From an uncultured Bacteroidota bacterium (GTDB lineage Bacteria; Bacteroidota; Ignavibacteria; UBA10030; UBA6906), in assembly GCA_963809695.1 (NCBI GenBank), contig CAWEKI010000010.1, forward strand, positions 606,225-670,224: a stretch of DNA of 64,000 bases, in the 5' to 3' direction. Below the pieces are notes generated by a model that was not told the DNA's origin, did not search any database, and was given only the letters and a program-made list of their open reading frames with translations. Shown piece by piece: positions 25,519 to 53,609 of the stretch. How positions within the stretch are numbered: the stretch's first letter is position 1; every line of letters starts with the position of its first letter. A program made the position numbers and the translations under genes.

Positions 25519-25527
25519 TTTACCCCC

Positions 25528-35350: not shown

Positions 35351-35391
35351 AAATAACAACAAAAAAGCCCCATCCGAACTGGCCTGGGGCT
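35351..35391 (-). terminator. Rho-independent terminator closing the giant-protein operon
   Basis: The minus strand reads AGCCCCA-GGCCAGTTCGGA-TGGGGCT followed by TTTTTGTTGTTATTT. This is the only hairpin followed by a T-tract that I found after the five-gene cluster. Confidence 0.6.
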
Positions 35392-35617: not shown

Positions 35618-38600
35618 CTAGCTAGATAGAGCTTCCAGCATTTCCTGTGCATGCACCGCAACCATGCTCGGTTTCTGAAATAAAATATAGGCCATGTTGG
35701 CCGAATCCGTGCCCCATTTGTTTTTGTCCGATACGTTGATATTAGGGACCACGGTGGATTTGATAAAGCGCGTATCGGGAGGAAGTTGATCCCAGGCCAG
35801 ATCGTCCCAGGAGAGTCCATCGGTGCCTGGGTCGAAATTGATGTCCATGCCGAAGCGCGGCTCACCCGGGACTTCCTGAATAATGAAAAACCAGCCGAGA
35901 TGATCGGTGAAGCCCGGCGTCAGCTCGGTGCCGCGTGCTTGCTCGATCGTAAAATCAAACCCGAACAGTTTAATGTCCGGCGGCAACTCCGCCCGGTACA
36001 AGGGGAACTTCACCTCTGTAGCATATTCCTCTACAGTCAAATCGAGATCGATAACCGGCTCATCGGGGTTGTCACCGGCGATAGCCTTCTGCGCGAAGAT
36101 GACGGTGTTGGGATAACGCTTCAACAGATCGCCGCGCACTAGCAGCACAGTCTGTTCAGTATCACCACCCGGATCGCGATTATTATGCGTCCCCAGCAGA
36201 CTGTGGATAGACCACGTGTGGATCGGCTTGATGTCCTTGTATTCCTCGGTTAACTGGGCCTCGGCCTTGTCGGCGTTGGGACGAATGATTCCTTTGACCT
36301 CCCAGAACTGACGGAAGTAACTGCCCCGCACGTCCGTCGGATACTCACGCCACAGCAGTTCCCGGCCCATCTCATAATTCAATCCCACCAGATAGGACTC
36401 GATGAATTTCTGATCGGTTTTAAGCAGTGAAATGGTATTCGCCGGGATCAGCTTCAGATTCGGTAACATCAATTCACCGGAGATCTGCACCAGTGGTTTA
36501 TACATTGGGTCTTCAAAATCCGGATACGCCATGGCCTCATAGAAGTTTTCCGGCTCCATTAACGAAATGTAACCCGGGAAGCGGGTGAAATAGGACAGTC
36601 GATAGGGGAAGGATTTCGTCGGATTGATCGCGGCGCTGACTCTTTGATATGCGTTCGACAAGCTGAACTCCACTAACGGTACGACTGGTACCTGCAGGGT
36701 TAACCGGGTCATGAGGCCGCTCAGCGCACTCCGAAAATTCATGCCCTCCACACTGTCGGCACCGGCTGCACCGGGCGTAGCCGGTCGTGTCACGGCTTCA
36801 TCGCTGAGCCTCAGCGTGAAGCTCGGTTGTGCGGGTATGCTCGCAATGCTGGCCGCTTCCTGTTGTGGATCCTGCAATGCAGAGGCCGCATTATAATTCG
36901 CCTGTAGTTTGCCTGCATAGGTCCCCGCCGCCACGACGGCCGCCGCAATAACTGCAGTAACTAACCAGGCACCTGTGATAAATCCGATCACCAAGAGCAG
37001 CAACAACAGCAGGAACAACACAATCCGACTCTGTTTGATCAACCAGTTCGGGAGTGAAGAAGGAAAAATCCGATTGGCAAAATCCTGTGTGTCCGGGATA
37101 CCGGCCGGTGTTACCTTGGGCGGTGCCGCTGTGAGGCTGCCCGCGTTGACGCGAGTGACGAGGCTGTCGTAGTCAAAGCTGACATTCGCTCCAAACCTCC
37201 TGATGAACTTACCATTGGGACGTACCAGCCGGCGGAAGCTGCCGGAGAATACCGCCTCGGGCAAGCGACTATCCCGAATCTGCTGCAGTATCGTCGTCGG
37301 GCTACCCATGACGCGCGCGAGTACCGGTTTGCTGATGGCCAGCAACTTGTTTGGCGGGAGAGCAGCAAAGGTTTTTGCAGTGAATTGCATCGCGACTTTC
37401 ATATACAGGAGTGAAAGCCGAATGCGCCGGTTCGCTTCGATGACTTTGGTCACCTGCGCCCACGCTTTGCGCATGAAGTCTTCCTGATTGTCCTGCACCA
37501 CGCGCGTACCAAACCCGGCTGAGACTCGGGTGCGCGGGTCCTTGTTCAGATCGTGTACCCAGGTGTTTTGGGTGATGTCCAGTTTCACCACATCGGTCAG
37601 GCTCTTCTTGGCGTGATTGCCGCCGTAGAGTGGAATGGAAATCACGGGATCACCCGAGGTATCCGTGCCCACGATCTCGAATGGCAGGTTCACGACCTTC
37701 TGCAGTTCCTGCTGAAACGCGATTTCCGTAGGCGGATTTGGGAACACGGTGGACACTGTGGTGGGTGATTTTAGAGCGCCCTCCAATCCGATCAGTTCCG
37801 GTTTGGTTGCCGGTAACTCGCCGCTGCCATCGGCTTTAACAAAATCCGGTTGATGGCAATCCATGTCGCGGATACCGACACGCGGATCCATAGGGCGGGG
37901 CTCCAGCCTGCGCACCAGTGATTCGAAATCCGCGTTGACGCCGGTTTGGAAGAACCACTCATAGTAAACCGGCATCTCCCCTTTTGCGCCATTCGTATCC
38001 CAGGACGCCAGTTGCGCATAGATCGTCTCCGTCGGCAATTCCAATCCTGCCAGCCGTCCCGTTTCGAAGGCCGGGATCACAAAGGCGTAGTAAGCTGTGT
38101 TCGGTTCGAGTTTGCGCGGACTCATGAGGCGACAGTAAAGTTGATCCGGGTCGTCATTCATGGTCTTTCCAAGCGACAACAGGAAGCGTTCGTAGTCGGA
38201 CAATTCACTGTCTGGAATATCCGCGTTGCTGTGCACGTGGGACCACATCCAGGTTTCGTTGAATGGAGGAAACACATCCTGGCTTCGCAACTTGATCGTC
38301 GGCAAGGGCACGCGCCGCGCGCTGCGTTCGAATTCGTCCTCTTTCAATACCAGCAGTAATAGCCAGGGACGCAGACGAGTCCCTGCGGGGGCCGCCGGTG
38401 TATAGCGCCAGGCAAAATCTTCGTCGTAGAATTCGATGAAGGAGAGATAGTTGCTTTCGAAATCGGCAATCCAGTTCAACGGTTCGGTGCGCACCACCAT
38501 GTCACGATTAATGCCAATGATGTCGCCCGGCGCGATGAGCGAAAACGTCTTGGAGAGCCCCGAGCCGTTCAAGGTTACCCCGATGGGAACCTCTGCACGC

Positions 38601-38710: not shown

Positions 38711-38789
38711 GGCGACATCCGTCTCCGATTTGATTCCGTACTGACTGTGCAATGGTATTCGTCATGTACCTGCGTCCTGCTTTTTACGC

Positions 38790-41700
38790 TCATGCGGCCA
38801 ACTCATGTTCGCCGACAATCTGGACCTTGCCGTGCAACGAGGGATCCTTTGCCATCAGTAGCGCCAGCGCATCGGCGGCTTCGGTGTAACTGCCGGCAAT
38901 GTTGCTGCCTGCGTGCTGCTTCATGTTACTGGTGCTGGCAATGGCAAAACCGTCTCCTTTGATCTGCACTTGATCCGGCGCGTTTGTGGACATGCGTTTG
39001 TTGCTGTACGAGAGTGAGGACTTAGCAACGGCACCGGCCCTCAAGTTGACCCGGAACAGGTCCTTCATATACTTGTAAATGCCGGCAAATACACGCAGCT
39101 CGCGTTTCTTGCGCAAATAGGTCATCTCATAATCCACACTCTTGTTGACGGTCGCGGGAACAATCAGCGTGGAGGTGCCCGCCAACTGGAAGCCACTCTT
39201 CATTTGCTCGAAGGAAGGCCGCGACAGTTTGGCGCTATCGGTTAAGGTCAGGAAATTCGCCGGGGCAAACAGTTCGGTGACGGGCTGGGTGAGCATGCCG
39301 GGATCCGAAGGATTGATTTCGAACCGGTTGGCATTCTTGGGCACCTTGGTGCCGAATTTGTTGATGGTGACTTCCAATGGCACCAGACGTTCACTGAAGG
39401 TCAGCACACCAAAGGGATGGATCACCAGTTTGTCCGAAGGCACATCCAGCTTTTTCAGACTCACATGCAGCTTATTGCTGTCCGGGATATCCGCCTTCCA
39501 GTTGCGATTGTCATCGATCTCCTGGGTGAGCCGCTGCAGCAAATCTTCGGACTCGCTGCTGACGGCATCGGGCCGGTCGCCCCAGGTCTCATGGAAGCTG
39601 ACAGTGATATCGAAGAACAAGATACTGAAGCTGGCCTCACCCTTCGCGTCCCAAGGCGTCGGTCCCGACAATTCCCCGGAGACGCTAATCCCCATGATGA
39701 CCGAACTGCCGCGGCGCAGCGCGAGACCAGCAGCGAAGTCGGCGATAAACTTGAACGGATCGAACTGGAACAGCAAATCAAAACCAATGAAGCCATAGAC
39801 ATTGAAGCCGCATGCCGCGGCATACAATTCCGCGCGGGCACCGAACTGCACCGTGTTCGAGGTCACCGCAAAATAACATTGGATGGTGATGCGCGGATTC
39901 TCGCCACTGAGCAGACTCAAGGTCAGCCGCGTCATGTTTTGCAGATCTGCGGGCGCTTCCTTGAAAGCCGGATGAAAACCGCCGACGCTCAGTATAAATA
40001 CCTTGGTGTCACCCCAGGATAGGCGAAAGGCCATGTCACCGGCCAAGGTAAACGTCAGCAAGCGCGAGTCGTACAGGCTGGCATCGAAGGAGATGTAGTT
40101 GTTCTCAAAGTCGATCACACCCAGGAAATTGACTTGCAGTCGCAACAGCGCATTTTTCTCATCCGGTAACAAGGCCTTGATGACGCCCAGGATCGCGAAA
40201 CGAGGCACCGGGATCTCCAACAACAGGCCTAGCTCCAAGGTGAGGATACTCGGTGTGCCCCAACCCAGTTTGCCCATGGGCATGATCAGGAAGCGACCAT
40301 TCAGTGGCGGAAATACTTGTTTGAGATCGCTAATAATGCGACTCATGTTGGCCACGACATCTGTCGGGAACAAAATGCTATTGAGGACATTGGTCTTGAT
40401 TCCCTGACGCAGCACGTCGACGCTGGTCGTGCGATTCAATCCCAACAACCCGCCTACGCCAAGAAGGGTGAAACCAAATCCCAGCTGGATGGGCGAGAAC
40501 TCCGCGGTGATGATTATCAGCAAGGAAAACCCGGGGCTGCCATCGGGCATTTTGGTATTGATTATGCCGACGGCCTTGAGATCGAACAGATTCTTAAACG
40601 ACAACTCCAAGGCACCGAAGTATTCACCCTTGTCCGGATCGAAATACAGGAAGCCACCGCCTTTGATCACACCTGTATCGAGTGATAGTCCCACCCCGTT
40701 GGGTGGTTTGAAATCGATCGCGTAGTTGATGAAACCCAGGTTCTTCGTGCCATTTGCCGGCAGCGAGAAGTTATGCAGCAGACCGATGCGCTCCACCGAC
40801 GCGCTGAAACCCAGGAACTTGGTGCTCATGCCGATGGAGGTTTCCATCAGTACGCCATCTTTCGTCTGGTTACCGCTGAGTTTGAGATAAAACGAATTCA
40901 GCAACAGCGGTCCCAGGGCGGTGTGCAAAGGAATGAACACGGTCAGGCCGGAGCCACCATCGACGTAGAAACCTTTTTTCAAGCTGTAGCCAAGACCAAA
41001 ATCAAAACTGCCGTAGATGCCTTTGTCCGGCAACATGCTGTTGAGAAAGCCGTCGGTCTTGCCTTTGACCAGTGCAAAGGCACTGTCTTTGGTCGCAAGT
41101 TTGACGTCCACGTCATTGTCCGCTATCGAGGCCTTAAGCTGGACCGAGGCGCCGCCGATTTTGAGATTCGTGCCCTTGGTATCGCCAATCACCAGGGGCG
41201 ACTGTTCACCATCATGTTCCAATTTGATGGTGGTGCGCAGGTCAACATCCTCCACCCCGTCCATAGCAAAAGAAAATTTCCACTCGCCGAATTTACGTTC
41301 GAATTTTCCACCTCCTGCCAGCAGTACCTCAATACCACCGCCCTGCTGGTTTTGCGGTCGCACCGCCATGGACACGATCATGGTGCCCGTGATTTCATTG
41401 CCCTCCGGATCCTTGACCTTGTAGGACAAGGACATCGTCAATGTTCTTTCCGAGATCAGATCCGCGACCGGCAACGTGGATCCAGGTGGAGGGTCAAATC
41501 CGTAGCTCACTTTCAGGTTGTCGCGGATGAAATCAAAGATGTAACTGAGTGCGGCGATCAGGATAAAGATCGTGTCAGACGCCAGTGCCGCTTCGTCGTC
41601 GTTTTCCGCATCAAAGCTGGTGAAGACCTTCTTGAGAAAGGCGGCGATATTCACCGTGAAATTCGAGATGCCACCGGAGGATTCCGCCAGTTCCTGGTAA

Positions 41701-42140
41701 CGATTGAGCGTTTTGCAGACGAGGTAAAAGGCCTTGGCAGAATTGGTCGTGGTATCACTCGTGGCACGCAGCCGCACCGCTTCCATCAGGTAGAGCTGTA
41801 GCAGCATGTCGAGAAAATCTGTGACGATCTCCGGATCATCGCCGTCCGTCACCAGGTGGATAAAATCATCGATAGCATTGGACACACTGATGATGTCGAG
41901 CACCACGCTGAGGAAGGCCTCGATATCGATATCCTCGTCGCTCTTGTCGACGTACTGCTGAATGCTGGCGAGGGAACCTGCCGGAATGCTGGGTGTGGAA
42001 CTGGCACCCGCGGTATTGAGTCCCAGCGCCTTGAGCACTTCAGTCTTGGCCTCCACATCCTGCAACTGTTGCGCGATGATCTTGAAGATATCGTTCAACC
42101 AGACGACGACAGATTTCAGTGCATTTTTAGTATCGGCCAC
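38790..42140 (-). CDS. Giant-operon gene 4: 1116-aa protein of unknown function (central/C-terminal region resembles DUF6603)
   Basis: GTG start 13 nt after the upstream stop. An acidic helical N-terminus is followed by a long Gly/Phe/Leu-rich beta-type region (..GGFLYFDPDKGEYFGALELSF.., ..VGGFHPAFK.., ..FDLLFQFDPFKF.., ..GPTPWDAKGEASFSILFFDI..). The DUF name is from memory. Confidence 0.8.
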   Translation of the reverse strand: MADTKNALKSVVVWLNDIFKIIAQQLQDVEAKTEVLKALGLNTAGASSTPSIPAGSLASIQQYVDKSDEDIDIEAFLSVVLDIISVSNAIDDFIHLVTDGDDPEIVTDFLDMLLQLYLMEAVRLRATSDTTTNSAKAFYLVCKTLNRYQELAESSGGISNFTVNIAAFLKKVFTSFDAENDDEAALASDTIFILIAALSYIFDFIRDNLKVSYGFDPPPGSTLPVADLISERTLTMSLSYKVKDPEGNEITGTMIVSMAVRPQNQQGGGIEVLLAGGGKFERKFGEWKFSFAMDGVEDVDLRTTIKLEHDGEQSPLVIGDTKGTNLKIGGASVQLKASIADNDVDVKLATKDSAFALVKGKTDGFLNSMLPDKGIYGSFDFGLGYSLKKGFYVDGGSGLTVFIPLHTALGPLLLNSFYLKLSGNQTKDGVLMETSIGMSTKFLGFSASVERIGLLHNFSLPANGTKNLGFINYAIDFKPPNGVGLSLDTGVIKGGGFLYFDPDKGEYFGALELSFKNLFDLKAVGIINTKMPDGSPGFSLLIIITAEFSPIQLGFGFTLLGVGGLLGLNRTTSVDVLRQGIKTNVLNSILFPTDVVANMSRIISDLKQVFPPLNGRFLIMPMGKLGWGTPSILTLELGLLLEIPVPRFAILGVIKALLPDEKNALLRLQVNFLGVIDFENNYISFDASLYDSRLLTFTLAGDMAFRLSWGDTKVFILSVGGFHPAFKEAPADLQNMTRLTLSLLSGENPRITIQCYFAVTSNTVQFGARAELYAAACGFNVYGFIGFDLLFQFDPFKFIADFAAGLALRRGSSVIMGISVSGELSGPTPWDAKGEASFSILFFDITVSFHETWGDRPDAVSSESEDLLQRLTQEIDDNRNWKADIPDSNKLHVSLKKLDVPSDKLVIHPFGVLTFSERLVPLEVTINKFGTKVPKNANRFEINPSDPGMLTQPVTELFAPANFLTLTDSAKLSRPSFEQMKSGFQLAGTSTLIVPATVNKSVDYEMTYLRKKRELRVFAGIYKYMKDLFRVNLRAGAVAKSSLSYSNKRMSTNAPDQVQIKGDGFAIASTSNMKQHAGSNIAGSYTEAADALALLMAKDPSLHGKVQIVGEHELAA

Positions 42141-42153
42141 AGATTTTACCCGT

Positions 42154-44814
42154 TTACGTTATCGACGGTGGTGTATCACTGGTGGGTTCCAGCGTGTTAG
42201 AAAACACAGTGTAGGCATCCGGGTCATCCGTCAGGTCATCGCTCGGCAACCAGTACCACAACTGCTGCGATGCCGTGAGATTGCCCGAGCCGTCCGTGGT
42301 GAATTTGATAATGCCCACGTTGTTGTCCCACTCCACGCGCCGGCCCACACTCTTTTTAAAGATGTCCACATGTCGAGCCAGCACCTTGCGGTATGCGGCG
42401 GTCGCATCTCCCGTCGTCGGATTGACATCCGGTGTAATCGAAGGTACCCGGATATTCGCCGGGCGTGCCGCAGCGGAGGTATCGTCCGGCCGTTGATCCG
42501 CGGCCAGCACCACCCGCCAAGACCATTCCGGCGGCTTATTCACTGTACTGCCCGCCGGCCAACCATCGGTGGGCAACAACACCGGTTCGCGGCGCAAGCG
42601 CAATCGGCTGATCGCCTGATTGGGTTTGCTAGCAGGATTCGTCACCTGCAAGCCTGCACGATGCGCCCAACCTAAGCGTTCCGCCGGATAAAACAGTGTG
42701 CCCAACAGCTTCTGCACAAACCCGCTCATGAGAAACTTCTCGTTGTTGAATTTCTGGTTTTTAAGGCCACTGGAGACGTACTGAATAAAGCGTGTCGGCC
42801 TGGCCTCGCCTTGCTTCCAGTAGTCGAGGGTTGCCGCCAGACCGAAATGGATATCGCCAGAAAGGAATACCACGCGTTTGAACTTTTCCAGGCGTTGCAG
42901 AAATTCCTCAAACACCGGAGGCGCAAACGACCACGGTTCAGGGTCGGCTTCATATTTGGAAAACACGGTTACCGTCGGTTGCAGTAATTCTTCGATCAAC
43001 CCCAGCCCCAACACCGGTGCCGGTGACACGAAGATCAGGAATTTTTCCGCCTGCGGGTCCGCCGGGATCTGATCATCCATGGCGCTCTTGGACAACAGAC
43101 CGGGTGGACTGTAGCGGGTGTCATAAGTGCGGCGCGTACGGGTATCCAGCACATAGGTGGTCGTTTCGCTGGAAGGAACCGAGTAATGCCACCAGACCGG
43201 CGGAGGTGTTTCATCATGCAGATTGAAACCAAACAAGACATCGATGACATCCGTGGCGGACGTGACTGGCCCGGACGTCCCGCTTGGGAACACGAGTGGC
43301 AGTTGGTTCAATAATTCCGCTTTCTGATCAGTGCCTGCCTCGCGCCAAATCACAGCACCATCGCCGACGTCGACGCCTTTGGTTGTCGGCCAAGCGGGTT
43401 GTGCCCCACCACTTAGTCCCCCCTGCTTCGCAATATACAGATGCCCATTGGCCGCGGTCGGTCTGACGTAATCATTCTGCGCGTACGTTGTGGCTGCCTT
43501 CCATGCCGGCGCGCTATAGGATGCCGGCAGGTTGCCCCAGTCCTGAAACAAGGTATACGCCATAAGGGCATTGCGAAGGATATTCACACCCAAGGGCGCC
43601 GTCAGCACCTTGTCCCGCCAATCCTTGGTGATGTACCAGTCGTCGGTGACTTCGTGATCGTCCAGGATCATGTACACCGGCACGTTGGCTAACACCCGCC
43701 GCACCTTTGGCAGCTGCGCGCGAAACGTGAGGACTTGTTTTAACTCATCGTCGAAATCGTCCTGCAGCTTCTCTTTGATTTTCGCAATGCGTTTCGTTTT
43801 GTCTTCCGGCTTCTCGTTGGCGTATTTTTTTTGTTCGTCTGCGTCCAACGGCGCCAGGTCCTGTTCGACCGTAGTAAGGGGATCGGTGTCCCATATTGCG
43901 AGAAAACCCGTCTTTGCCTTGAGCACCGAATCCTCCGCGTACAACTCCGTCGACCACACCACGTTGTTCCAGCCCATGAGATAGGTCGCGGCAAATTCGC
44001 CGAAGGACAGCAAATGGTTTGCGCCCTCGCCGGTGGAAAACTTGGCATTGTGCGTGACGATGCGCTGCCGGCGCGACGCCGGGAAGTTGGCCATGGTGGT
44101 GGGATAGGCTCCGCTCGTGCCATCCTTTTTTTTCACGGAAAGATCTTCTGTCAGCCCCAATAACTGATTGCCCAAGTCATTGATGTAGGGCAGAAGCAGG
44201 GTGGGGATTTCATCGGAGTAGATTTGATCACCGGTCAGAAACAACTGATGCGGACGCTTGTCTGGATCGTTGTCGTTGATGGCCTGCTGGATCAAGGTAT
44301 CCAGCACCGCCAAGGTGTCCTTGCCGGGACCGTGCATTTTGCGGCAGGAACCGTGTGCCAGGTTGAGTTTGTCGATAGTCACCGGCGGCAAAACAAACGA
44401 TGGCAGAAAACCGGGCTTATACCCCAGGGCCAGATTGGGAGCGGGATCCGTCGAGCTGGGAAATTTGTCGAGCAACAAACCGAGCGATTTGAGATCCGCA
44501 TTGCCGGAGGCTGGAGTGAAACTCAGATTATAGGAATACAGTTTTCCCGGAAACAACGGCGCGGCGGGCGCAGGCAGATTGATGGTGACCAGTGCAACAT
44601 GCAGCTTCGAACCCATGCGCAAGGTGTGGAGTGAAGCCGTGTACAAGACTGGATCAGTGGGAGAATACAAAGCGGTGTCGGTCCCCGTTGCGATCACCTT
44701 ATCCCAAATGCTCAAGGTCACATTGGCTTCTTCAGCAAGCGCAACCCAGACCGACACCGAACGTGCGGTGACGCGGCGGACGATGGGACCGGCAAGAATT
44801 AATGGTAGCGTCAT
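42154..44814 (-). CDS. Giant-operon gene 3: PhoD-like metallophosphatase-domain protein (~886 aa) with large insertions
   Basis: I prefer the ATG at 44814 (GGAGAG RBS); the ORF-track start at 44832 is TTG. PhoD-type motifs occur in order: LILAGPIVRRVTARSVSVWV (N-terminal sandwich), AHGSCRK, FLTGDQIYSDE, ILDDHEVTDDW and FLSGDIHFG. Confidence 0.8.
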   Translation of the reverse strand: MTLPLILAGPIVRRVTARSVSVWVALAEEANVTLSIWDKVIATGTDTALYSPTDPVLYTASLHTLRMGSKLHVALVTINLPAPAAPLFPGKLYSYNLSFTPASGNADLKSLGLLLDKFPSSTDPAPNLALGYKPGFLPSFVLPPVTIDKLNLAHGSCRKMHGPGKDTLAVLDTLIQQAINDNDPDKRPHQLFLTGDQIYSDEIPTLLLPYINDLGNQLLGLTEDLSVKKKDGTSGAYPTTMANFPASRRQRIVTHNAKFSTGEGANHLLSFGEFAATYLMGWNNVVWSTELYAEDSVLKAKTGFLAIWDTDPLTTVEQDLAPLDADEQKKYANEKPEDKTKRIAKIKEKLQDDFDDELKQVLTFRAQLPKVRRVLANVPVYMILDDHEVTDDWYITKDWRDKVLTAPLGVNILRNALMAYTLFQDWGNLPASYSAPAWKAATTYAQNDYVRPTAANGHLYIAKQGGLSGGAQPAWPTTKGVDVGDGAVIWREAGTDQKAELLNQLPLVFPSGTSGPVTSATDVIDVLFGFNLHDETPPPVWWHYSVPSSETTTYVLDTRTRRTYDTRYSPPGLLSKSAMDDQIPADPQAEKFLIFVSPAPVLGLGLIEELLQPTVTVFSKYEADPEPWSFAPPVFEEFLQRLEKFKRVVFLSGDIHFGLAATLDYWKQGEARPTRFIQYVSSGLKNQKFNNEKFLMSGFVQKLLGTLFYPAERLGWAHRAGLQVTNPASKPNQAISRLRLRREPVLLPTDGWPAGSTVNKPPEWSWRVVLAADQRPDDTSAAARPANIRVPSITPDVNPTTGDATAAYRKVLARHVDIFKKSVGRRVEWDNNVGIIKFTTDGSGNLTASQQLWYWLPSDDLTDDPDAYTVFSNTLEPTSDTPPSIT

Positions 44815-44986
44815 GGTCTCTCCATAGAGCAAACGCCGGCCTGCGTCTTGTCGTCAGCGAACGGGTTCGTCATGTTGCTGATCTGTCGACCTTGACATGT
44901 CCTCCTGTTGCTCACATTGGTCCGCCGCCCATTGTGCGCGCGAGCACTCACGTTCACACCTTTTGAATATAAGTACGGCAAAACCG

Positions 44987-46735
44987 CTAACTGATATTCT
45001 CCGGAATATCCACGATCTGATCGAAACGCAAATTGCTCCAGCCTTCACCCTTACCCGCTTCCTTGTCCCGGCCGACCCACAGGTAAGTCACCCCATTGAG
45101 CCACCGTGCGCGCTGAAACGAACGGCGCACAATCATGCCGGCCTTAGGGATCTCCACTTCATCCAGATAATAGGGCGCTGGCTTTTCCGTCAGGATCACG
45201 CCCTGGGCGCCTTTGGCCGCCGGCAACCGAGCACGCTGCAGACGAATCTCGCGGTTACTGCCCTGCATGTGGACCGGGATAAATGGAATCCAGTTGTCCG
45301 GTACCGTGGTGCCGGCCATATAGCGAATCTGCACGGTGTCATTCACCGGCACAAATGCCGGCGGTGGTGTGTCCTGGCGTGCCAGTTCATCACCGCTCAC
45401 GCCTTTACCCGCTTGCGAGGGCACTCGTTGCTCGACCGCCCACACGAGGTTGGCCATTTCATCGCGCAGGAAATTCACCTGCTCCAGCGGCGCACTGCTC
45501 AAGACCTTGGGTAAGGCGGGCGCCAGGTAAAACAAGTTGGTATTCTGTGTGCTATTGTTGGAATCCGTGAGATGGAACATCGCCCATCGCTGCCACTGGC
45601 TCTCGCTGCCGCGCCCGGCCGGACGGATCAGGGTGTGTTGACCGAACACGTCGGTGATGGTGATCCCTTTCATTTCACACAGGGTGTTGATATCCATGGG
45701 ATACGGCAGCATGAACCAGTCGTTGGAATATACCAGACCGAATTCCGCCAACAACAAATGCAACAGGCCGGTGGTACTGGTATCGATATGGCCAAAATCC
45801 GTCTGCTGCTCTTCCATCATCCAGAAGCGCGGATTGGGCATGCCTTTGAACGAGATCGGCGCCGGAATGAACGACACGAAGTTTTCCACCACACTCGCAT
45901 TGCGTGGCTCGCTGCCGAGCGTCACGCGGTTGTCGAGGTCAAAGCTGTACCAATCCACATGCCCGGTGAAATATTGATTCGCGGTAAGGCGCATTTGGGT
46001 CGGTGTCGAAGAAGCCAAGGCAAACTGATACTCCAGTTTCTCCGGTAACCACGCGCTGCCCTTGGGGGCAGACAGATCGTAGGTGCGGGTGATCCAATCC
46101 TGATAGTCTGTGGCAATCTGTGTGAACAGTTGTTGATCCCCGTTCGGAATGCCTTCATCCGTCATCCACTGATCGAACAGTGTGCCCGTGCCGTTGTCGG
46201 TCGTCATCGCGACGTAGACTTGATAACCATCGAACAGGTTGACTTGCACCGCCGTCAGTAACTGCCCGCCCTCCGCGTCATGCTTATCGATGGTGGGGTT
46301 AAGCGGATACTGGATCACCAGTTTGTCGCGGTAGCCTGCGAGTCCCTTATCTCGCATCAGGCGCAGGAAATAGCGCGCCAGTTGTGTTGCCAAAAACAGA
46401 TCTTCTTTCAACGTCTCCCGCTCCACCTGCACTTCCAACGGGATGTTCTCGTTATAGCCAAACACCTGATTATCGGGAAAACTGATCCGATCCAGGCTCG
46501 TGTGTTCGCCCAGGATCTGCGCCGTCACCGGCGAGCCGGCGTCTTCGCCCTTGAATTCACCGAACTGCCATTGGCGTGTGAGCATCCACAAGGGATCGCG
46601 GATCTCCGCCTTTAGGCTGCGGGTAAAATCCGTACTACGCGGGCTGACCTCCAGGCGGTTATACGCGGTAATCGAGGCAATCCGGTATTCCTTCAGTGCC
46701 ACCGCCTGTAAAACGCTCTCGACGATTTTTGCCAT
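44987..46735 (-). CDS. Giant-operon gene 2: 582-aa protein of unknown function
   Basis: ATG start 19 nt after the stop of gene 1. It is rich in conserved-looking aromatic motifs (RDPLWMLTRQWQFGEFKGEDAGSP, NPRFWMMEEQQTDFGHID, YSNDWFMLPYP), but I can name no family. Confidence 0.8.
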   Translation of the reverse strand: MAKIVESVLQAVALKEYRIASITAYNRLEVSPRSTDFTRSLKAEIRDPLWMLTRQWQFGEFKGEDAGSPVTAQILGEHTSLDRISFPDNQVFGYNENIPLEVQVERETLKEDLFLATQLARYFLRLMRDKGLAGYRDKLVIQYPLNPTIDKHDAEGGQLLTAVQVNLFDGYQVYVAMTTDNGTGTLFDQWMTDEGIPNGDQQLFTQIATDYQDWITRTYDLSAPKGSAWLPEKLEYQFALASSTPTQMRLTANQYFTGHVDWYSFDLDNRVTLGSEPRNASVVENFVSFIPAPISFKGMPNPRFWMMEEQQTDFGHIDTSTTGLLHLLLAEFGLVYSNDWFMLPYPMDINTLCEMKGITITDVFGQHTLIRPAGRGSESQWQRWAMFHLTDSNNSTQNTNLFYLAPALPKVLSSAPLEQVNFLRDEMANLVWAVEQRVPSQAGKGVSGDELARQDTPPPAFVPVNDTVQIRYMAGTTVPDNWIPFIPVHMQGSNREIRLQRARLPAAKGAQGVILTEKPAPYYLDEVEIPKAGMIVRRSFQRARWLNGVTYLWVGRDKEAGKGEGWSNLRFDQIVDIPENIS

Positions 46736-46754
46736 GGTCGTTGTTATCCGCTGC

Positions 46755-49700
46755 TCAAGTGGGAGTAAATTGCATGGCCGCCTTCACAGGGGCGTTCTCA
46801 TATACAAAAGGAATAGTGAGACGATAATCCAAGGCCACGCTCAGATCGTATTGAGAAAAGTCTGCCAGGATCGCCGGGAGCAACACTCCAACCTCGGCCT
46901 TATCCAGGGTGTCGAGCAATTGCGGTTCGACCGCGCGCAACTTGGCACGCAGCAGGGTGTCATTTAGAATGCCGACGAGATCGTCCCAGGTCCAGTGACC
47001 TTTCAAGTTGGGTGGGACCGCCAGCAACAGAGCCTGCGGTGGCGTCACATTGGGTTGATCGTAATTAAATGCGATGCCAGAGGTCTGCTTGCGCGTGGGG
47101 ATGTCTTCGGTCCAATCGTCGATGAGCAAGCCACATTGAGCGGCGGCGGGAACAAACGCCGCATTGCCGTGGATAGTGATCGACAGCGTATCGTGTTCGA
47201 TATTGAACGGTTGGGTCGGATCCAACGGATCGGTTATGGGAAACTCCACCGCCAACCAACTGTCACCCGCACGATACGGCAACTGGATGGGCAACAGGCT
47301 AAGGCGGTCGGCGTTGAACCATTCGTAGAAAGACAGGATATAGTCCCAGCGCGACAGGTTATTGCGCACATGCGCGACACTCTGCAGCCACTCTTCCGCC
47401 GGGTAATGCATGTGCAGCGCATTCGTCGCGTGCTGCAATAACTGTGCGCGGTCGCCATGCGAGAGTTGAATGTCCGCCTCATTGTTATACATGAAATGTG
47501 GCAACAGGCTAAACATTTCACCCATGAGCGCCTTGCCGGCGGCAAGATACAGCTCGACTTGTTTCGCCGTTTCCGTGGCGGCGCTCGCCTGCGTCAGCAA
47601 GTCACTCGCGGTCGCGGCGGCCACGCCCATGCGATGTGAGACACCCATGGCCTGATCCAACAACAGCGATTTACTCTGCGCATCAGGTAGCTCCCGTTGC
47701 AGAGGAAAGGCATCGGGCAAACCGTGCGACGAGATGGCCAGCAACTGAGTCTGTAACCACAGGGCGTCGCCATCGGCAAAGGTGAAGCTGATATCAGCAA
47801 AGCTCAGATGTGCGACTGACAGCGCGTCGAAAGCCGCGGACAGGCTGAAGTAATGCAAGTCATTGCCATCCTTGTCCGGGACGACGGCATTGATGGAATA
47901 GATGTTTAGGTCGGAGAGCAAAGTCGTGAACGTTGATTGGAAACCCTGTACCCGTCCGAGCAACTCCGCGGCTAAATAGCCTTGCGGATTGGTCTTGTCC
48001 ACCACACGTTGTTTGGAAGGCGGATCGTAATCCTGCGCGTGCAAGGGCCGCGCGTCGGTGATCACGGTCTTCAACATCCGCAGGTAAGGTAACATTTTGC
48101 CCAGGGTCCGTTTGTCCGCGGGTTGCAGGAACTCGACGCGCACTGTAATCGTACCATCCAGATTATTCTTCTCTCGGTAGTACCAGGCGATACGTGACTC
48201 CAGTTCGGAGGCGGATGTTTTGTTTTCCATGCCGGGCTGCACGGCGCCGGTATTCAATTCCTCGCCGACCAGGTACGCCAGATCGATGGGCTGCAGGGCA
48301 AGCTTGTCAATGGTGATGTCTTCGCTGCCGGTGAGATTGCCGTGAGCGTCCAGTTGCGAGACGCGGCAGTACACGTTGTTAGGTTGCCCGAGCATCTTAC
48401 CGAGCCAGGCATTCAAACCCGGTTCGACACGCGCGCGCGGACTCATGGCAATCGGGCTCCACGGATTGCTGGCGGTGGCATCCGGGTCCAGAAGTTCGAA
48501 CTGCACCGCCACACGTTGAGTGAACGTGAATTGGCGGCTGCGTGGTGTATTGATAATATCGATCTCGGGCGGGATATTGGATTCCTGCAAGGCATTGACC
48601 ACGGCCGCGGCCCGATCGAAATTGCCTTGCACCAATTGATACACGCTTTCGCTCTGTAGAAGGTCTTTGACCGCATCCAGTGAATCACTCAGGCGATCCT
48701 TCTCCTGGCGTATCGCCTGTCGTTCAGCGGCGCTTGCACTGGCTACGGCACCGGCGGCGCCATAGGGCACATTGCCGCTGGCTTCCGCCAACTTCACCCC
48801 GTTGACGACGCTATTGGGTGGCACACTCTCGTGCGGCCCATCACTACCCTGCTGCTTCAGATAATGTTGTTCCAGAGGATACTTATCGCGAAAATCGTAA
48901 ATGTATTCATTCAACTTGATCAGGTTGATGTCCGCGGAGGCGGTGTCATGTAGACCACGTTCGAACTGGTAACCGAGCAGCGCCTCCAGTGACTGGCCGT
49001 TGTGGATGCCTTGCAGGATAAACAAGGCACGGCGAATCCGTTCCGAGGACAAGTTAACCGACATGCGATCTGGCTCACTGCTTTGCGCATCACTCAAATA
49101 GCCCGCCCGTAACACCGCCGCTGCCGAAGCCTGATTCAGTGAGGGTGCATGAACAAAACCGCCGTTATTGGTGTATTCGTACAAGGCCTCGCCCTTCGGC
49201 GGCATGAGTTTGTCCGGCATCCCACCGCGCACCAATTGCGGACGCACACCCGGTTTTAGATTTTCCACCCAGCCATAAGCACCGAGATATATGCCCTTGC
49301 TTCGATGATCGCGTTGCTCGCCTTGATTGCCCTCTCCTTCGCGCAACCCAACCAAAGGCGGGTGACGCAAGTGCTCGAGTCGTACGCCAAACATCGCGCT
49401 CTGCCAACTATCGAGGCGATAGGTGCAGGTATCGAGGTGCTCGGTGAAACAGCGTTCGAGGCGTCCGGTGGGCAAACTCGCCAGTGTTTTAATTGCCGCG
49501 CGGATCTCATTAAGGTAGGTGGCCTCAGTTTGATTTCTACCTGAGGTCAGCAGGTACTCCGCCACCGGTTTTGCATTATCCGGGTGTCCGGGCACCGCGA
49601 CCGCCACCTTGGCCTTCATGGTTTCCCACTTGGTCAAGCTGATCTCCGGACGAATATTGTAGACATTCGCAACTTCGAGGGTGGGCGTGACATCGATGTT

Positions 49701-52178
49701 GTTGTGCATGAACCAGTTGACGGAGCTCTTGTGCAATTGGAGCAACAACGCACGGCGCAACTTGAGGTAAAGCAAAGTGTTGGGTGCCTTGACGCCGGGA
49801 CCGAAATCCTGTTTCTCCAGCGCGTCGATGGATTGCGCCTCCGCCAACCAATCCAGATAATTCTTTTTAGCGGCTCCATCGTAATAGCGGATCAGATCCT
49901 TTTCCGAGAGCGGTACCGCGTCGATTAGATTGTTGGCATCCAGCGTGGTGTGGTAATGCTGATATAGAATACGCAGCAGCTGCGGAACGCGTAGATTTCC
50001 TTGGGCATCGGTCAGATTATACCCGAGTGGACTGAGAAAATTCAGAACGTTGTTCTTGCTACCGAAACTCTGGTGCATGTCATCGTAGTAACGACCGCCA
50101 TACTGGAAGTCATCCAGATTCCGCAGATAGTCCGTGCTGTAACCGATGCGCGCGGCGAACGACGCCGACCCAGGCTGCAAACCCAGCACGTCCATCAACA
50201 CCGCGGCGGGATCGCTCTCGGTGCCGGGCTTGCCGACATAGTTCAGTTGCCCGAGCACACTCAGCCAGATCGCGTGGTATTTTCCAAGCACTTGCTGCAT
50301 GGTGTAGAGAAAGCCAGGATTTATCTGATTCTCCTGCTTGGACCACGCCCACTGTGCAAAATTACTGGTGAGCAGGACGCCATAGGGTTGGTTACCAACG
50401 CGGATGGCGGGTAGCGGACCACGGCCGCTAACGCGTTGCACAAAAAACTCACGCAAGGTCTCCTGGGCCGCCTCACTCAAGACCGGTTGCATCAAGGTGT
50501 CAAAGTAATAACCCAACGTCGCCTGATACAATGCCGTGTTCATCGCGATGGCTTCGCGCCGATCCGTGGCATCACTGTTATGAACGTGCTGGAGCGGTGC
50601 ATACTCGATACCAAGGGCATCAGCAAGATAGCGCCCGTCAGTATCATCGCCTGCATTGAACAGCGGGACACCGGTCTCGGTGAAATAACTGATGTTATTG
50701 AACTGATCGTTCTTAGTATATCCCGAGCCACTGTCATTGGTGTTGTTGGTGGCCGTACCCTGGCGCACGAGGCTGAAGCCTTTAGGCGAGTAATGGTGGT
50801 TGTCGATTAGAGTTTCCAACGCCGTCTTGCTGTCAGTGGCACCAGCGGACAAGGAGAGGCCCATGACCAAGACTTTGCTGAAGCCGTTCAGCGACTGTTG
50901 CGCTGTAAGCGGGATCTTGAAACCCATGCCAAGCGACACCGCCTTGAGAAAATCCGAGGTCCAGTCGAATGATTCACCGAACAGCAGCTTATCATTCACA
51001 TTCACAAAGGCCTCGTCTTCTTCCAACGGATCCGGCCCGACAAACAACTCATCCGGCACCTGCTGACCCACGACTTCATGGACGAGCGTTTCCCCTTCAT
51101 ATAACATCACCACAAATTTATCCGGCAGCACCGTGGTGCGCGGCGCGCGACTCCAGGCGGAAGTCTTGGTGAGATCATGTGTCGGAAATATCGGTTCGAT
51201 TGCAGCCGCAAGGTGATCCCAATTCGTCGGGTTGGTCTGACCCGCAACATAGGCAGCCCGTTGCGCACCGAACTGTGTCACCATCTCCGTCCACGCCGCC
51301 TTCCTGGTGTCTTCCGCGTTCGGCCCGCCGGCCAACGTGGCATCCCACAACGCGCGCCAATACTTCTCACCTTCATCCACTTCTTGATCGGATAACACGT
51401 CTTCGTGAGTGTGAATTGCGATGTCGTCGGGATAAATTCGCAGCCACAGTTCTGGTGACTTGAGCCCGGTCATGAAACGCGTTTCGATCCGCACGGGCAT
51501 CAATAAAAATGGCGTGCCATCCCCCAGATTCGGTACGAGATCGCGCGGCGCGACATCGCCATAGAGTTGCGCAATGGCGGCATCGACAGCATCCCGGCTC
51601 GCTTTCAGGCGCTGCTTTGCTTCCTGGTATGAACCCTGGTCTGCTACCGCCGCGCTCGGGGCAGTGCCACTTGCCTGCGGCGTGGTGCGCAGACGGGCCT
51701 GCAGTTTGCTGGTCTGGCTGGCGATTGTTTCACGGAGTGTCGTGCGTGACGATTCGAGTTGTGAGCGTTGTTTGTCGGCCTTGCTTAGCTGTTGCCGCAG
51801 GGTGTCGAGTGTCTTGGCCGTTTTCTTATGTTCTTGTTGCAGGGTCTTCTGCGCAGAGTGAAGGTCAAAGGTCTTGAGTTGTTGTTGGATAAAACTCAGT
51901 CGCGTCTCTGCTGCCGCGACTCTCCCCGGTAAGCTGGCCAATGCGCTGAGTTCCAGAGTCAGTTGCTGTAATCGGCCGGTATTATCAGCGAGTTGATTTT
52001 TGAGTTCGAGAATGCGACTGGGATCGGCGGGGAGAACGGTTTGCTGTTTTATGCGCTTCGCCTGGGCGGTCTGATCTTTACGCAGCCGGAGCTGGATGGC
52101 ATATAGTTGCTGATCACGCGACGCCCGTTCATTACGTAATGTGGCTATTCGCTGTAAACGTTCATCCCAAATCGACAT
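46755..52178 (-). CDS. Giant-operon gene 1: 1807-aa protein of unknown function with an N-terminal ~190-aa coiled coil
   Basis: ATG at 52178. Residues 1-~190 are heptad-like and Q/L/R/K/T-rich (..LRNERASRDQQLYAIQLRLRKDQTAQAKRIKQQ..LQQEHKKTAKTLDTLRQQLSKADKQRSQLE..). The remainder has no Walker A motif, HExxH motif, internal repeats or TM segments by eye. Confidence 0.85.
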   Translation of the reverse strand: MSIWDERLQRIATLRNERASRDQQLYAIQLRLRKDQTAQAKRIKQQTVLPADPSRILELKNQLADNTGRLQQLTLELSALASLPGRVAAAETRLSFIQQQLKTFDLHSAQKTLQQEHKKTAKTLDTLRQQLSKADKQRSQLESSRTTLRETIASQTSKLQARLRTTPQASGTAPSAAVADQGSYQEAKQRLKASRDAVDAAIAQLYGDVAPRDLVPNLGDGTPFLLMPVRIETRFMTGLKSPELWLRIYPDDIAIHTHEDVLSDQEVDEGEKYWRALWDATLAGGPNAEDTRKAAWTEMVTQFGAQRAAYVAGQTNPTNWDHLAAAIEPIFPTHDLTKTSAWSRAPRTTVLPDKFVVMLYEGETLVHEVVGQQVPDELFVGPDPLEEDEAFVNVNDKLLFGESFDWTSDFLKAVSLGMGFKIPLTAQQSLNGFSKVLVMGLSLSAGATDSKTALETLIDNHHYSPKGFSLVRQGTATNNTNDSGSGYTKNDQFNNISYFTETGVPLFNAGDDTDGRYLADALGIEYAPLQHVHNSDATDRREAIAMNTALYQATLGYYFDTLMQPVLSEAAQETLREFFVQRVSGRGPLPAIRVGNQPYGVLLTSNFAQWAWSKQENQINPGFLYTMQQVLGKYHAIWLSVLGQLNYVGKPGTESDPAAVLMDVLGLQPGSASFAARIGYSTDYLRNLDDFQYGGRYYDDMHQSFGSKNNVLNFLSPLGYNLTDAQGNLRVPQLLRILYQHYHTTLDANNLIDAVPLSEKDLIRYYDGAAKKNYLDWLAEAQSIDALEKQDFGPGVKAPNTLLYLKLRRALLLQLHKSSVNWFMHNNIDVTPTLEVANVYNIRPEISLTKWETMKAKVAVAVPGHPDNAKPVAEYLLTSGRNQTEATYLNEIRAAIKTLASLPTGRLERCFTEHLDTCTYRLDSWQSAMFGVRLEHLRHPPLVGLREGEGNQGEQRDHRSKGIYLGAYGWVENLKPGVRPQLVRGGMPDKLMPPKGEALYEYTNNGGFVHAPSLNQASAAAVLRAGYLSDAQSSEPDRMSVNLSSERIRRALFILQGIHNGQSLEALLGYQFERGLHDTASADINLIKLNEYIYDFRDKYPLEQHYLKQQGSDGPHESVPPNSVVNGVKLAEASGNVPYGAAGAVASASAAERQAIRQEKDRLSDSLDAVKDLLQSESVYQLVQGNFDRAAAVVNALQESNIPPEIDIINTPRSRQFTFTQRVAVQFELLDPDATASNPWSPIAMSPRARVEPGLNAWLGKMLGQPNNVYCRVSQLDAHGNLTGSEDITIDKLALQPIDLAYLVGEELNTGAVQPGMENKTSASELESRIAWYYREKNNLDGTITVRVEFLQPADKRTLGKMLPYLRMLKTVITDARPLHAQDYDPPSKQRVVDKTNPQGYLAAELLGRVQGFQSTFTTLLSDLNIYSINAVVPDKDGNDLHYFSLSAAFDALSVAHLSFADISFTFADGDALWLQTQLLAISSHGLPDAFPLQRELPDAQSKSLLLDQAMGVSHRMGVAAATASDLLTQASAATETAKQVELYLAAGKALMGEMFSLLPHFMYNNEADIQLSHGDRAQLLQHATNALHMHYPAEEWLQSVAHVRNNLSRWDYILSFYEWFNADRLSLLPIQLPYRAGDSWLAVEFPITDPLDPTQPFNIEHDTLSITIHGNAAFVPAAAQCGLLIDDWTEDIPTRKQTSGIAFNYDQPNVTPPQALLLAVPPNLKGHWTWDDLVGILNDTLLRAKLRAVEPQLLDTLDKAEVGVLLPAILADFSQYDLSVALDYRLTIPFVYENAPVKAAMQFTPT

Positions 52179-52367
52179 TGTTTTCGCCTTTGCTAATTGG
52201 GTCCAAACGTGCCGGGCAGGTCAACGATAGATAATGTCTCGCGCATAAATGATTGACTCGAAGTGATATTGCTACACATGGTCTGACGGACTCCTCTCCC
52301 CTTCGAGTATTTCTGTCAACGTGTATCCCGAGGCACAGCAGCTCCTAAGACTTTTAAAAAATATAGA

Positions 52368-53498: not shown

Positions 53499-53609
53499 TC
53501 AAGCTAGTGCCCCACCAACTATCATTTCCAATAAACGACGGGGCACAGTGCTCGCTCCAACTTGAACTCTGTCCGAGAATTCGTTGCAATTGAAAGTTGG
53601 AGCGGCACT
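53499..53609. repeat. Tandem pair of AGTGC(C/T)...GGCACT palindromic elements (copies A and B)
   Basis: Copy A pairs GTGCCCC (53507-53513) with GGGGCAC (53540-53546). Copy B pairs 53547-53563 with 53594-53609 (16 bp with one bulge). CTAGTGCCCC at 53504-53513 is identical to 57638-57647. Confidence 0.6.

Follow-up and report, generated by a model that had tools for sequence, protein, structure and literature searches.

A conserved unit of four genes, D-E-A-B, accompanied by a variable cassette, was found in the 64,000-nucleotide stretch of Bacteroidota DNA that was analysed (the window), where the gene order A-B-C-D-E is a local permutation of that unit. The module is best read as horizontally mobile, widespread and previously undescribed. 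We put it at somewhat less than an even chance that the locus is a conflict-type module, consisting of a conserved four-protein carrier and a swappable hydrolase cassette, whose enzyme is deployed outside the cytoplasm.

Five minus-strand open reading frames (ORFs), all in the same direction, occupy positions 35618-52178. A first-pass annotation had given these ORFs with their lengths and with spacers of 19 nt (A-B), 154 nt (B-C), 13 nt (C-D) and 37 nt (D-E), and the ORF list reproduced all of them exactly. The features of the locus are as follows.

46755..52178, minus strand: gene A, 1807 aa, core component 3 of 4 in the canonical D-E-A-B order (ORF list)
51534..52178, minus strand: N-terminal coiled coil of A (aa 1-215), heptad-rich sequence with JetC/LmuB and tropomyosin/FPP matches
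44987..46735, minus strand: gene B, 582 aa, core component 4 of 4 (ORF list)
42154..44832, minus strand: gene C, 892 aa, probably 886 aa from 44814, variable cargo/effector, divergent PhoD-type metallophosphoesterase (predicted)
43318..43572, minus strand: insert domain of C (aa 421-505), match to PHROG phrog_20658
38790..42140, minus strand: gene D, 1116 aa, core component 1 of 4, proposed carrier/adaptor (DUF6603 match)
41061..42140, minus strand: variable N-terminal module of D (aa 1 to ~360), delimited by co-variation with the cargo enzyme
39234..40928, minus strand: DUF6603 beta-rich core of D (aa 405-969), Pfam coordinates
35618..38752, minus strand: gene E, 1044 aa, probably 1030 aa from 38710, core component 2 of 4 (ORF list)
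36911..37048, minus strand: hydrophobic helical hairpin in the linker of E (aa 569-614), Kyte-Doolittle
35351..35391, minus strand: intrinsic-terminator-like hairpin and T-tract, ~230 nt past the E stop (RNA fold)

Public gene calls and the family alignment favoured the ATG at 38710 as the start of E (1030 aa), which had been offered earlier as an alternative and which gives a D-E spacer of 79 nt; they also favoured Met7 as the start of C (886 aa). For each of the five genes, homologues number from hundreds to thousands, at bit scores of 300-2300, and the ORFs are therefore real genes rather than chance ones. The hairpin with a T-tract, which the first-pass annotation had found only after the last gene, was supported by its folding energy (dG of -28.5 kcal/mol, z = -3.4 relative to shuffles). 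However, promoter and terminator scans of the whole region gave site counts no higher than in shuffled sequence, so that a sole terminator is a weak statement and a single transcript is only a possibility. No Rfam match was obtained over the whole window. The motif scan agreed with the by-eye reading that GxxxxGK[ST] and HExxH are absent from all five proteins, and no signal peptide was found in any of them. The transmembrane hairpin that had been noticed in the last protein was identified as E 569-614, the sole strong hydrophobic segment among the five proteins, and the N-terminal coiled coil of the first protein and the intact PhoD-type motif set of the third were also recovered, as detailed below.

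Relatives of D were found in at least 594 species-representative genomes from many bacterial phyla and from haloarchaea, with carriers in Bacteroidota, Acidobacteriota, Gemmatimonadota, Actinomycetota, Pseudomonadota, Myxococcota, Bacillota, Planctomycetota, Verrucomicrobiota and haloarchaea; Chitinophaga filiformis and Pedobacter heparinus are among the cultured carriers. For the synteny survey, which was made by tblastn, 84 loci were fetched; the loci L085, L089 and L092 were fetched later. The D-E-A-B order on a single strand was invariant in all 84, as far as the contigs reach: E followed D in every sufficiently long locus, A lay downstream of E wherever the sequence was long enough, and B came after A in all loci extending far enough. 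In loci with public gene calls the core junctions were tight or overlapping, with several overlaps of 4-8 nt. Because this synteny is invariant across phyla, the core genes were regarded as a functional unit. The order in the window is a lineage-specific cyclic permutation of D-E-A-B. The five-gene operon described in the first-pass annotation thus stood as far as the four-gene core is concerned, but neither its order nor C as a core member was retained. Several loci were flanked by integrases or transposases and many copies were located on megaplasmids, while no conserved neighbouring gene was found around the loci. A single record labelled ‘Bacteriophage sp.’ carries E-A-B; it was marked as unverified and is probably bacterial, and it was not accepted as a phage copy. 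In Ancylobacter and Streptomyces, the divergently oriented ~800-aa genes that lie upstream of D were also compared, and turned out not to be one family.

Gene D gave the only family match of the core. Its residues 405-969 matched Pfam PF20248 (DUF6603), a family to which no function has been assigned, with 427.9 bits (cutoff 27, E=6e-128), and no other family was matched in Pfam, NCBIfam, PADLOC or PHROG. A literature search on DUF6603/PF20248, BGTF and the effector combinations returned nothing relevant. Across 54 homologues of D, 35 residues were invariant. The AF2 model of D (pLDDT 74.5) placed a helical domain at 1-208 ahead of ~40 long antiparallel strands at 209-853, which make up an amphipathic beta-sheet body of very large size; this model and that of A were only moderately confident, with pTM of 0.46 and 0.56, respectively. 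Foldseek searches with the D model against PDB and BFVD returned generic beta-meander matches only (TM<=0.16). The beta-barrel and beta-meander matches in PDB were rejected as homology because the folds are generic and the TM-score relative to D was at most 0.15, and the tail-fibre-like models in BFVD were unconvincing, with low TM. D was further considered as an outer-membrane beta-barrel, for which a signal peptide, a diderm-only distribution and a closed barrel matched at a good TM-score were looked for. This assignment was rejected: D is without a signal peptide, its family also occurs in Paenibacillus, Nocardia, Streptomyces and haloarchaea, and its TM against porins did not exceed 0.15 when scaled to D, nor ~0.3 when scaled to the porin targets, which are much shorter. 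For a 2205-aa D fusion in locus L082, no PDB sequence match was found.

The N-terminal part of D behaved differently from its core. Residues 1-300 of the window D matched only the D proteins of PhoD-type loci, even those with the most distant cores, and did not match the D proteins with the closest cores, which adjoin S8 or M64 enzymes. The cargo family was predicted by the nearest D N-terminus in 52 of 54 cases, versus 30 of 54 by the nearest D core, and N-terminal scores averaged 156 bits within cargo families versus 38 bits between them. These comparisons show that the first ~360 residues of D are exchanged together with the neighbouring cargo gene, and we infer that D may bind the cargo.

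By clustering of the upstream genes, the gene adjoining D was found to be drawn from at least seven unrelated families, mostly hydrolases. Pfam identified subtilase S8, trypsin/Nal1-like protease, M64-like metallopeptidase and PLD among the slot contents; the others were unrecognised proteins, including the unkX and unk380 families, for which no PDB sequence match was found. In the window the slot holds the PhoD-type phosphoesterase C, assigned from its own Pfam match, and a C homologue lay directly upstream of D in 9 of the 84 survey loci and in L085, L089 and L092. Phosphoesterase activity, which had been taken as the single activity of the assembly, is accordingly one of several alternatives in a variable slot and not its defining property. 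Tandem arrays of alternative or paralogous cargo genes were observed in loci L012, L021, L027, L032, L068 and L075; arrays of alternative cargo genes are a pattern known from polymorphic toxin loci. The cargos are stand-alone enzymes of 500-1500 aa. PhoD, S8 and M64 enzymes are typically extracellular, Ca/Zn-dependent hydrolases; no Sec signal was found on the cargo enzymes, and no immunity-like gene was found adjoining the cargo. A PLD gene elsewhere in the window (30180-31928) was considered as a displaced cargo and rejected, as no similarity links it to the PLD cargo family.

For C, a Pfam score above the cutoff and the metal-ligand motifs GSC, GDxxY, DDHE and GDxH were taken as the marks of PhoD. 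The Pfam score was 32.3 bits against a cutoff of 27, with a match over 33 residues only, and the motifs HGSCR, GDQIY, DDHE and SGDIH were invariant among 8 C homologues; a PDB profile search gave only a marginal alkaline-phosphatase match. Because the Pfam match is short, the motifs are invariant and the PDB match is only marginal, C is classed as a divergent member of the PhoD-like metallophosphoesterases, with predicted activity. Its insert at aa 421-505 resembles the phage head-decoration family phrog_20658 (PHROG, E=2.4e-10).

The remaining core proteins A, B and E had no match in Pfam, NCBIfam, PADLOC, PHROG or PDB sequences beyond coiled-coil noise. Pfam searches over 55 homologues of A, B and E, which included 18 members of the A family, gave only such noise; single-sequence and profile searches of PDB returned no significant match for any family, and profile-profile comparison of A, B and E with one another revealed no paralogy. 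A consists of the N-terminal coiled coil, which varies in length and sequence among homologues, followed by ~1600 aa of conserved mixed alpha/beta domains of no known family; many residues are invariant in the family alignment. The PADLOC matches of A aa 27-194 (JetC, E=1e-4; LmuB, E=4e-3) were at the coiled-coil level only, and some homologues matched tropomyosin/FPP. The AF2 model of A aa 216-1400 had a pLDDT of 70.7, and Foldseek of this model against PDB gave nothing at E<=0.001. B is rich in Trp and acidic residues, with 53 invariant residues across 17 phylogenetically distant members; its family comprises at least 4334 clusters at 50% identity (E<=1e-3), with no Pfam family and no PDB relative. 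E, for which at least 2515 homologues were counted (clusters at 90% identity), likewise has no Pfam family or PDB relative, and contains two conserved soluble domains with a variable linker between them.

The hydrophobic hairpin lies in this linker (Kyte-Doolittle peak 3.06). It was present in 56 of 77 orthologues at a threshold of 1.6, and E was without a hairpin in 23 of 77 systems (~30%). In systems without the hairpin, no convincing transmembrane segment was seen in the other recovered core proteins either, and these versions are therefore probably soluble. The hairpin is thus a predicted membrane anchor in the lineage of the window and not a family-wide property, so the earlier proposal of a membrane-tethered assembly applies to the window but not to the family. 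Such a strongly hydrophobic hairpin, found in ~70% of systems, would be awkward for a released soluble particle.

RefSeq labels several core proteins with surface-type domains, namely a ‘BGTF surface domain’ on a haloarchaeal A, a ‘lamin tail domain’ on a haloarchaeal B and a ‘VCBS repeat’ on a Streptomyces E; these proteins are also without signal peptides. A PhoD-like cargo carries the label ‘peptidoglycan-binding domain’. Together with the typically extracellular cargo families and the head-decoration-like domain in C, these labels are hints of extracytoplasmic deployment.

In the proposed model of a conflict-type module, the variable N-terminal module of D would act as a cargo-specific adaptor holding the cognate enzyme, as its co-variation with the cargo suggests. 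The DUF6603 body of D may form, with E, A and B, a large ATPase-free assembly in which the enzyme stays latent while inside the producer and from which it is deployed against another cell or surface, by a logic resembling that of Tc toxin complexes or VgrG-effector cassettes. In the window version the assembly would also be tethered to the cytoplasmic membrane via the E hairpin, and the payload would be the predicted phosphodiesterase/phosphatase. Against this model speaks the lack of a visible export route: no ATPase, secretin, holin or lysis cassette was found. A more tentative and rather doubtful proposal is that D-E-A-B is an ATPase-free deployment machine common to bacteria and archaea, independent of the envelope type and loaded through a cargo-matched adaptor on D with a folded hydrolase of 500-1500 aa, which it would bring to a target beyond the cytoplasm of the producer. 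An envelope-remodelling machine, which had also been suggested, found no specific support.

The main rival is an abortive-infection or anti-mobile-element defence. D-E-A-B would then be a cytoplasmic sensor-scaffold, often membrane-tethered, in which a latent hydrolase is held by the D N-terminus, and infection would release or activate the hydrolase so that the host cell is killed or arrested. It is favoured by the pairing of one conserved core with protease, PLD or phosphoesterase effectors that can replace one another, the signature of many defence systems (Lamassu, CBASS, Avs, ietAS). The sporadic, cross-domain distribution with mobile-element flanks at several loci agrees with it, as do the lack of signal peptides and the wholly cytoplasmic predicted topology. 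Among 90 neighbour proteins (a sample of ~2 genes on one side per locus), a minority matched TIR (two proteins), MADS, SoFic or OLD-type ATPases; most, however, were metabolic, with no evident defence-island pattern. Moreover, none of the five proteins matched any of 5027 PADLOC models besides coiled-coil noise, no NTPase, nuclease-sensor or other known signalling domain was detected, and a scan of 2.9 million IMG/VR viral contigs yielded no relative of D. The tandem cargo arrays and the surface-type fusions (PG-binding, VCBS, LTD, BGTF) are also atypical of Abi systems. Taking both sides into account, we consider the defence reading unlikely.

Less probable still, and by a clear step, is an intracellular cage or nanocompartment, or a device for regulated self-digestion (scavenging, development, autolysis), with no role in conflict. 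A cargo gene of variable type directly upstream of a large structural gene is the organisation also seen in encapsulin operons, and the amphipathic beta-sheet body of D and the systems free of any convincing transmembrane segment would suit such a particle. On the other hand, the searches detected neither HK97 nor BMC nor any other shell fold; the cargos (proteases, phospholipase/nuclease-type PLD and phosphoesterase) have no common substrate class, so that generic damage fits them better than a metabolic pathway; and the patchy, mobile distribution argues against housekeeping. It was also considered that the five ORFs are merely adjacent without a functional link, or mis-called, since the 154-nt B-C gap could hold a promoter and the terminator and promoter scans stayed at the shuffled level. 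This reading retains hardly any probability and is effectively refuted by the synteny, D-E-A-B being invariant across 84 bacterial and archaeal loci and all the proteins strongly conserved.

A, B and E occur across hundreds of species in both prokaryotic domains, always together, and no model in Pfam, NCBIfam, PADLOC or PHROG covers these families, whose structures are neither solved nor recognisable. Either reading, a toxin-delivery complex or an immune system, would bring a machine of a new kind into prokaryotic conflict biology; if the ATPase-free deployment machine is real, it would be a new toxin-complex or secretion class built from four folds without known relatives. The swappable hydrolase cassette with its co-varying adaptor offers a clear handle for functional work, and the cargo-adaptor pairing could in principle serve to load other enzymes. 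In many genomes from soil, the sea and haloarchaea, tens of kilobases now labelled ‘hypothetical’ would gain an annotation as well.

The first-pass annotation had stated that the locus fits no named system, and family, PDB and Foldseek searches (the last with the D and A models) indeed placed the set nowhere, DUF6603 in D being the only match. The module resembles Tc (ABC) toxins in its very large proteins without signal peptides or an ATPase, in the combination of a beta-sheet-rich conserved carrier with a hypervariable enzymatic payload, and in its sporadic, horizontal spread. However, no VRP1, TcdA/TcdB pore, SpvB or RHS/YD domain was found by Pfam in any member, and neither the TcA pore/shell nor the TcB/TcC RHS cocoon or SpvB was seen in the five proteins and 55 A, B and E homologues, in PDB sequence searches or by Foldseek; the D and A models showed no similarity to Tc, Rhs, VgrG or other carriers. 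The Tc payload is a C-terminal HVR inside the cocoon, whereas that of the module is a separate full-length gene, and most versions of the module have a TM hairpin protein and the module is also archaeal. With T6SS VgrG/PAAR cassettes and Rhs loci the module shares a variable effector gene abutting the carrier gene, a terminal adaptor region of the carrier that co-varies with the effector, and tandem arrays of alternative effectors. It differs from them in the absence of adjacent immunity genes and in effectors that are stand-alone enzymes of 500-1500 aa. No gp27/gp5, PAAR or VgrG, sheath, tube or baseplate gene (gp6/gp25/gp27-like) of T6SS or contractile injection systems was found by Pfam, by PHROG or among the neighbours, and T6SS is absent from monoderms and archaea, in both of which the module is present.

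Lamassu, Avs, CBASS and ietAS are likewise patchy and combine one core with alternative protease, PLD or phosphoesterase effectors, and the SMC-like LmuB of Lamassu has a long coiled coil as gene A does. In contrast to these systems, the module has no NTPase or known sensor and is not clearly located in defence islands; searches for BREX, DISARM, Druantia, Lamassu, Wadjet, Zorya and the other systems in PADLOC 2.0 gave coiled-coil matches only, with no Walker A. Encapsulin operons resemble the module in that a cargo gene of varying identity lies directly upstream of the structural gene. They have one small shell protein of HK97 fold, whereas the module has four giant core proteins, in which Pfam detected neither an HK97-fold nor a BMC-domain shell and for which nothing capsid-like was matched by the D and A models. 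Cargo matching in encapsulins depends on a short targeting peptide on the cargo, while in the module it would reside on the structural protein, at the N-terminus of D.

The five minus-strand ORFs claimed in the first-pass annotation were recovered with identical coordinates in the ORF list, and the claimed intergenic spacers of 19, 154, 13 and 37 nt derive from these coordinates. The claimed hairpin with T-tract was also found to be real.

46755-52178, minus strand: gene A, ORF of 1807 aa
44987-46735, minus strand: gene B, ORF of 582 aa
42154-44832, minus strand: gene C, ORF of 892 aa
38790-42140, minus strand: gene D, ORF of 1116 aa
35618-38752, minus strand: gene E, ORF of 1044 aa
35351-35391: hairpin and T-tract, dG -28.5 kcal/mol, z = -3.4

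For the start of E the ATG at 38710 (1030 aa), and for that of C Met7 (886 aa), was favoured both by public gene calls on identical proteins and by family alignments. The operon had a G+C content of 0.55-0.56 throughout, and that of its flanks was similar. In a generic scan terminator-like sites were as frequent in shuffled sequence, so all five genes may plausibly share one transcript. An Rfam search of the window gave no match. The B-C spacer (44833-44986; 154 nt, or 172 nt if C begins at Met7) contains only a weak hairpin, directly after the stop codon of B, and an internal promoter there is possible. Upstream of A, ∼2.2 kb (52179-54427) had a G+C content of 0.49 versus ∼0.555 and contained no convincing ORF (the longest two, of 122 and 99 aa, matched no family); it could be a promoter/regulatory region or decayed sequence. 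Further upstream (54428-61714) are encoded a protein of 1037 aa that carries a T9SS C-terminal sorting domain, a GAF/sigma-54 activator, and a Ser/Thr kinase containing TPR repeats. These neighbours showed no link to the operon in other genomes; the T9SS domain suggests a host from the FCB group. The downstream block (22002-34771; G+C lower, 0.48-0.50, at 22-30 kb) encodes a GH123-like protein, DUF6345, an alpha-amylase-family protein, a B12-binding radical SAM enzyme and a PLD-like protein; the last was rejected as a relative of the PLD cargo described below, to which it is unrelated. A 221-aa protein from this block matched no family; it has an N-terminal hydrophobic segment, a coiled-coil-like stretch and a C-terminal GDLIFY motif, which we take to be NlpC/P60-like.

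By tblastn with the five window proteins, it was found that the order D-E-A-B on one strand was kept in 84/84 fetched loci up to the limits of the contig or flank, with adjacent gene calls frequently overlapping by 4-8 nt. Thus the five ORFs stand, but the conserved unit is D-E-A-B rather than all five genes. Cyclic permutation of this order yields A-B-C-D-E, which apart from the window was seen only in two public contigs whose D protein is identical; a relative at 58% identity already has C-D-E-A-B. The B-C spacer is the seam of this permutation, the canonical order having cargo first and B last. A Nocardia plasmid carries D-E-A-B-S8 peptidase, so that the enzyme follows B, as in the window.

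Relatives of D were found at no fewer than 594 loci when one genome per species was scanned. The bacterial hosts among the matches listed included Bacteroidota, Acidobacteriota, Gemmatimonadota, Actinomycetota, Alpha-, Beta- and Gammaproteobacteria, Myxococcota, Paenibacillus, Planctomycetota and Verrucomicrobiota, and a Natrinema megaplasmid in the same scan also encodes a D relative. Searching plasmids by tblastn added three further haloarchaeal genera, Streptomyces linear plasmids and Gemmatirosa. The E family comprised at least 2515 clusters at 90% identity, and the B family, at 50% identity, 4334 clusters with E ≤ 1e-3 and 1520 with E ≤ 1e-30. Among 90 flanking proteins no conserved neighbour outside the module was found; most were metabolic or regulatory, a few matched TIR, MADS, SoFic or OLD-type models, and some copies were flanked by integrases or transposases. 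The module is a self-contained mobile unit of a four-gene core plus a cassette. None of 2.9 million IMG/VR viral contigs encoded a D relative, and so a 40-kb record from human faeces with E-A-B at one end (L088, MT835531.1, 30100-39147, labelled 'UNVERIFIED: Bacteriophage sp.') is probably a misclassified bacterial contig.

A homologue of C, the PhoD-type phosphoesterase, was present upstream of D in just 9/84 loci. The single phosphoesterase activity claimed for the assembly is thus not its defining trait; it is an interchangeable payload. At most other loci a same-strand ORF of 380-1500 aa abuts D, and clustering gave at least seven unrelated families. Pfam identified subtilase S8, Nal1/trypsin-like serine protease, M64-like metallopeptidase and PLD; two families had no Pfam identity. 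At several loci there are two or three cargo genes, arranged in tandem (S8 and M64 in L027). The cargo enzymes share no common substrate class, and no cargo protein has a Sec-type N-terminus. The PhoD match of C was short and barely over threshold; the PhoD-type motifs HGSCR, GDQIY, DDHE and SGDIH were invariant across its family. An 85-residue insert in C (residues 421-505; window 43318-43572) matched PHROG phrog_20658 ('head decoration', E = 2.4e-10) and may be a small binding domain that phage virion-surface proteins also have.

The N-terminus of D was found to be matched to the cargo. Residues 1-300 of the window D had significant matches solely in D of PhoD-type loci (seven loci, E 1e-11 to 1e-35), including those with the most distant D cores (37-41% identity). 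The closest cores (∼60% identity) accompany S8 or M64 cargo and showed no N-terminal match. The nearest neighbour shared the cargo family at 52/54 loci by the D N-terminus, versus 30/54 by the D core. The point of exchange falls near residue 360, immediately ahead of the invariant D363/F365. From this co-variation we infer that D(1-360) is a putative cargo-specific adaptor, chaperone or inhibitor. Two loci had unusual D regions. In Algoriphagus (L082, 5627-12244) D has 2205 aa, and may be a cargo-D fusion because its extra N-terminal 1450 aa match nothing; at L058 (10001-17448) ∼7.4 kb of D-matching sequence upstream of E suggests two tandem D-like genes.

The claim that the set fits no named system survived testing, and profile searches gave no match placing it in a characterised one. 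D matched PF20248 (DUF6603, E = 6e-128), of which the searchable literature makes no mention; apart from this label, RefSeq calls the core genes 'hypothetical protein'. A, B and E matched no Pfam, NCBIfam, PADLOC or PHROGs family, directly or via 17-20 diverse homologues each. They showed no paralogy to one another, and the N-terminus of A gave only coiled-coil-level matches. None of the five families had relatives among PDB sequences, profile searches included. GxxxxGK[ST] and HExxH motifs were absent from all five proteins, as claimed. The AF2 model of D (pLDDT 74.5, pTM 0.46) exhibited a helical domain (1-208) followed by ∼40 long antiparallel strands to residue 853, with confidence peaking at 520-860. 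Foldseek against the PDB returned only outer-membrane barrels and similar beta-meanders, with TM ≤ 0.15 when D is the reference and no more than about 0.3 when the porin targets, which are much shorter, are the reference; BFVD gave low-TM matches to tail-fibre-like models. That D is an outer-membrane protein was rejected, because it lacks a signal peptide and is found in archaea and in bacteria that are monoderm. The model of A residues 216-1400 (pLDDT 70.7, pTM 0.56) was mixed alpha/beta, with no PDB match at E ≤ 0.001.

The sole strongly hydrophobic stretch in A-E is E 569-614, a hairpin in a variable linker. With the hydropathy threshold set to 1.6 it was found in 56/77 orthologues; at 1.9 it was missing in 23, and in these 23 systems the other recovered core proteins had no convincing TM segment either. 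The proposed membrane-tethered assembly is thus compatible with the window, but by hydropathy tethering is lineage-specific and optional. By RefSeq label, surface or extracellular-type domains were acquired repeatedly, always by proteins without a signal peptide. Such enlarged core proteins occur on haloarchaeal plasmids (L092, L093, L094; 'BGTF surface domain' in A, 'lamin tail domain' in B) and on a Streptomyces longwoodensis plasmid (L089), where E is labelled 'VCBS repeat-containing', the PhoD-like cargo is labelled as having a 'peptidoglycan-binding domain', and the gene for an RHS-core protein lies close by.

The module has no ATPase, signal peptide or known fold. Proteases, a PLD and a phosphoesterase are the mix to be expected of generic damage-dealing effectors, and so indicate a conflict system, for which two readings compete. 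The less likely of them, abortive-infection defence, is favoured by the core-plus-effector logic and the entirely cytoplasmic topology; against it, PADLOC gave no match, NTPase and sensor domains are absent, a clear defence-island context is lacking and no copy was found on IMG/VR viral contigs. An intracellular cage seems less likely still, and the remaining probability belongs to something not yet imagined.

Our leading, still tentative, reading is that the cargo would be deployed outside the cytoplasm. In its favour are cargo enzymes that belong to extracellular-type families and have no signal peptides, arrays of cargo genes in tandem, fusions to surface-type domains and the lack of any hallmark of defence. 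Against it, no export or lysis function is visible, immunity genes are absent, and the anchor of most E proteins is genuinely hydrophobic. As far as the searches and the searchable literature show, the system is undescribed and not homologous to any characterised machine; if its cargo is deployed in this way, its likeness would be to Tc toxins or VgrG-effector cassettes.
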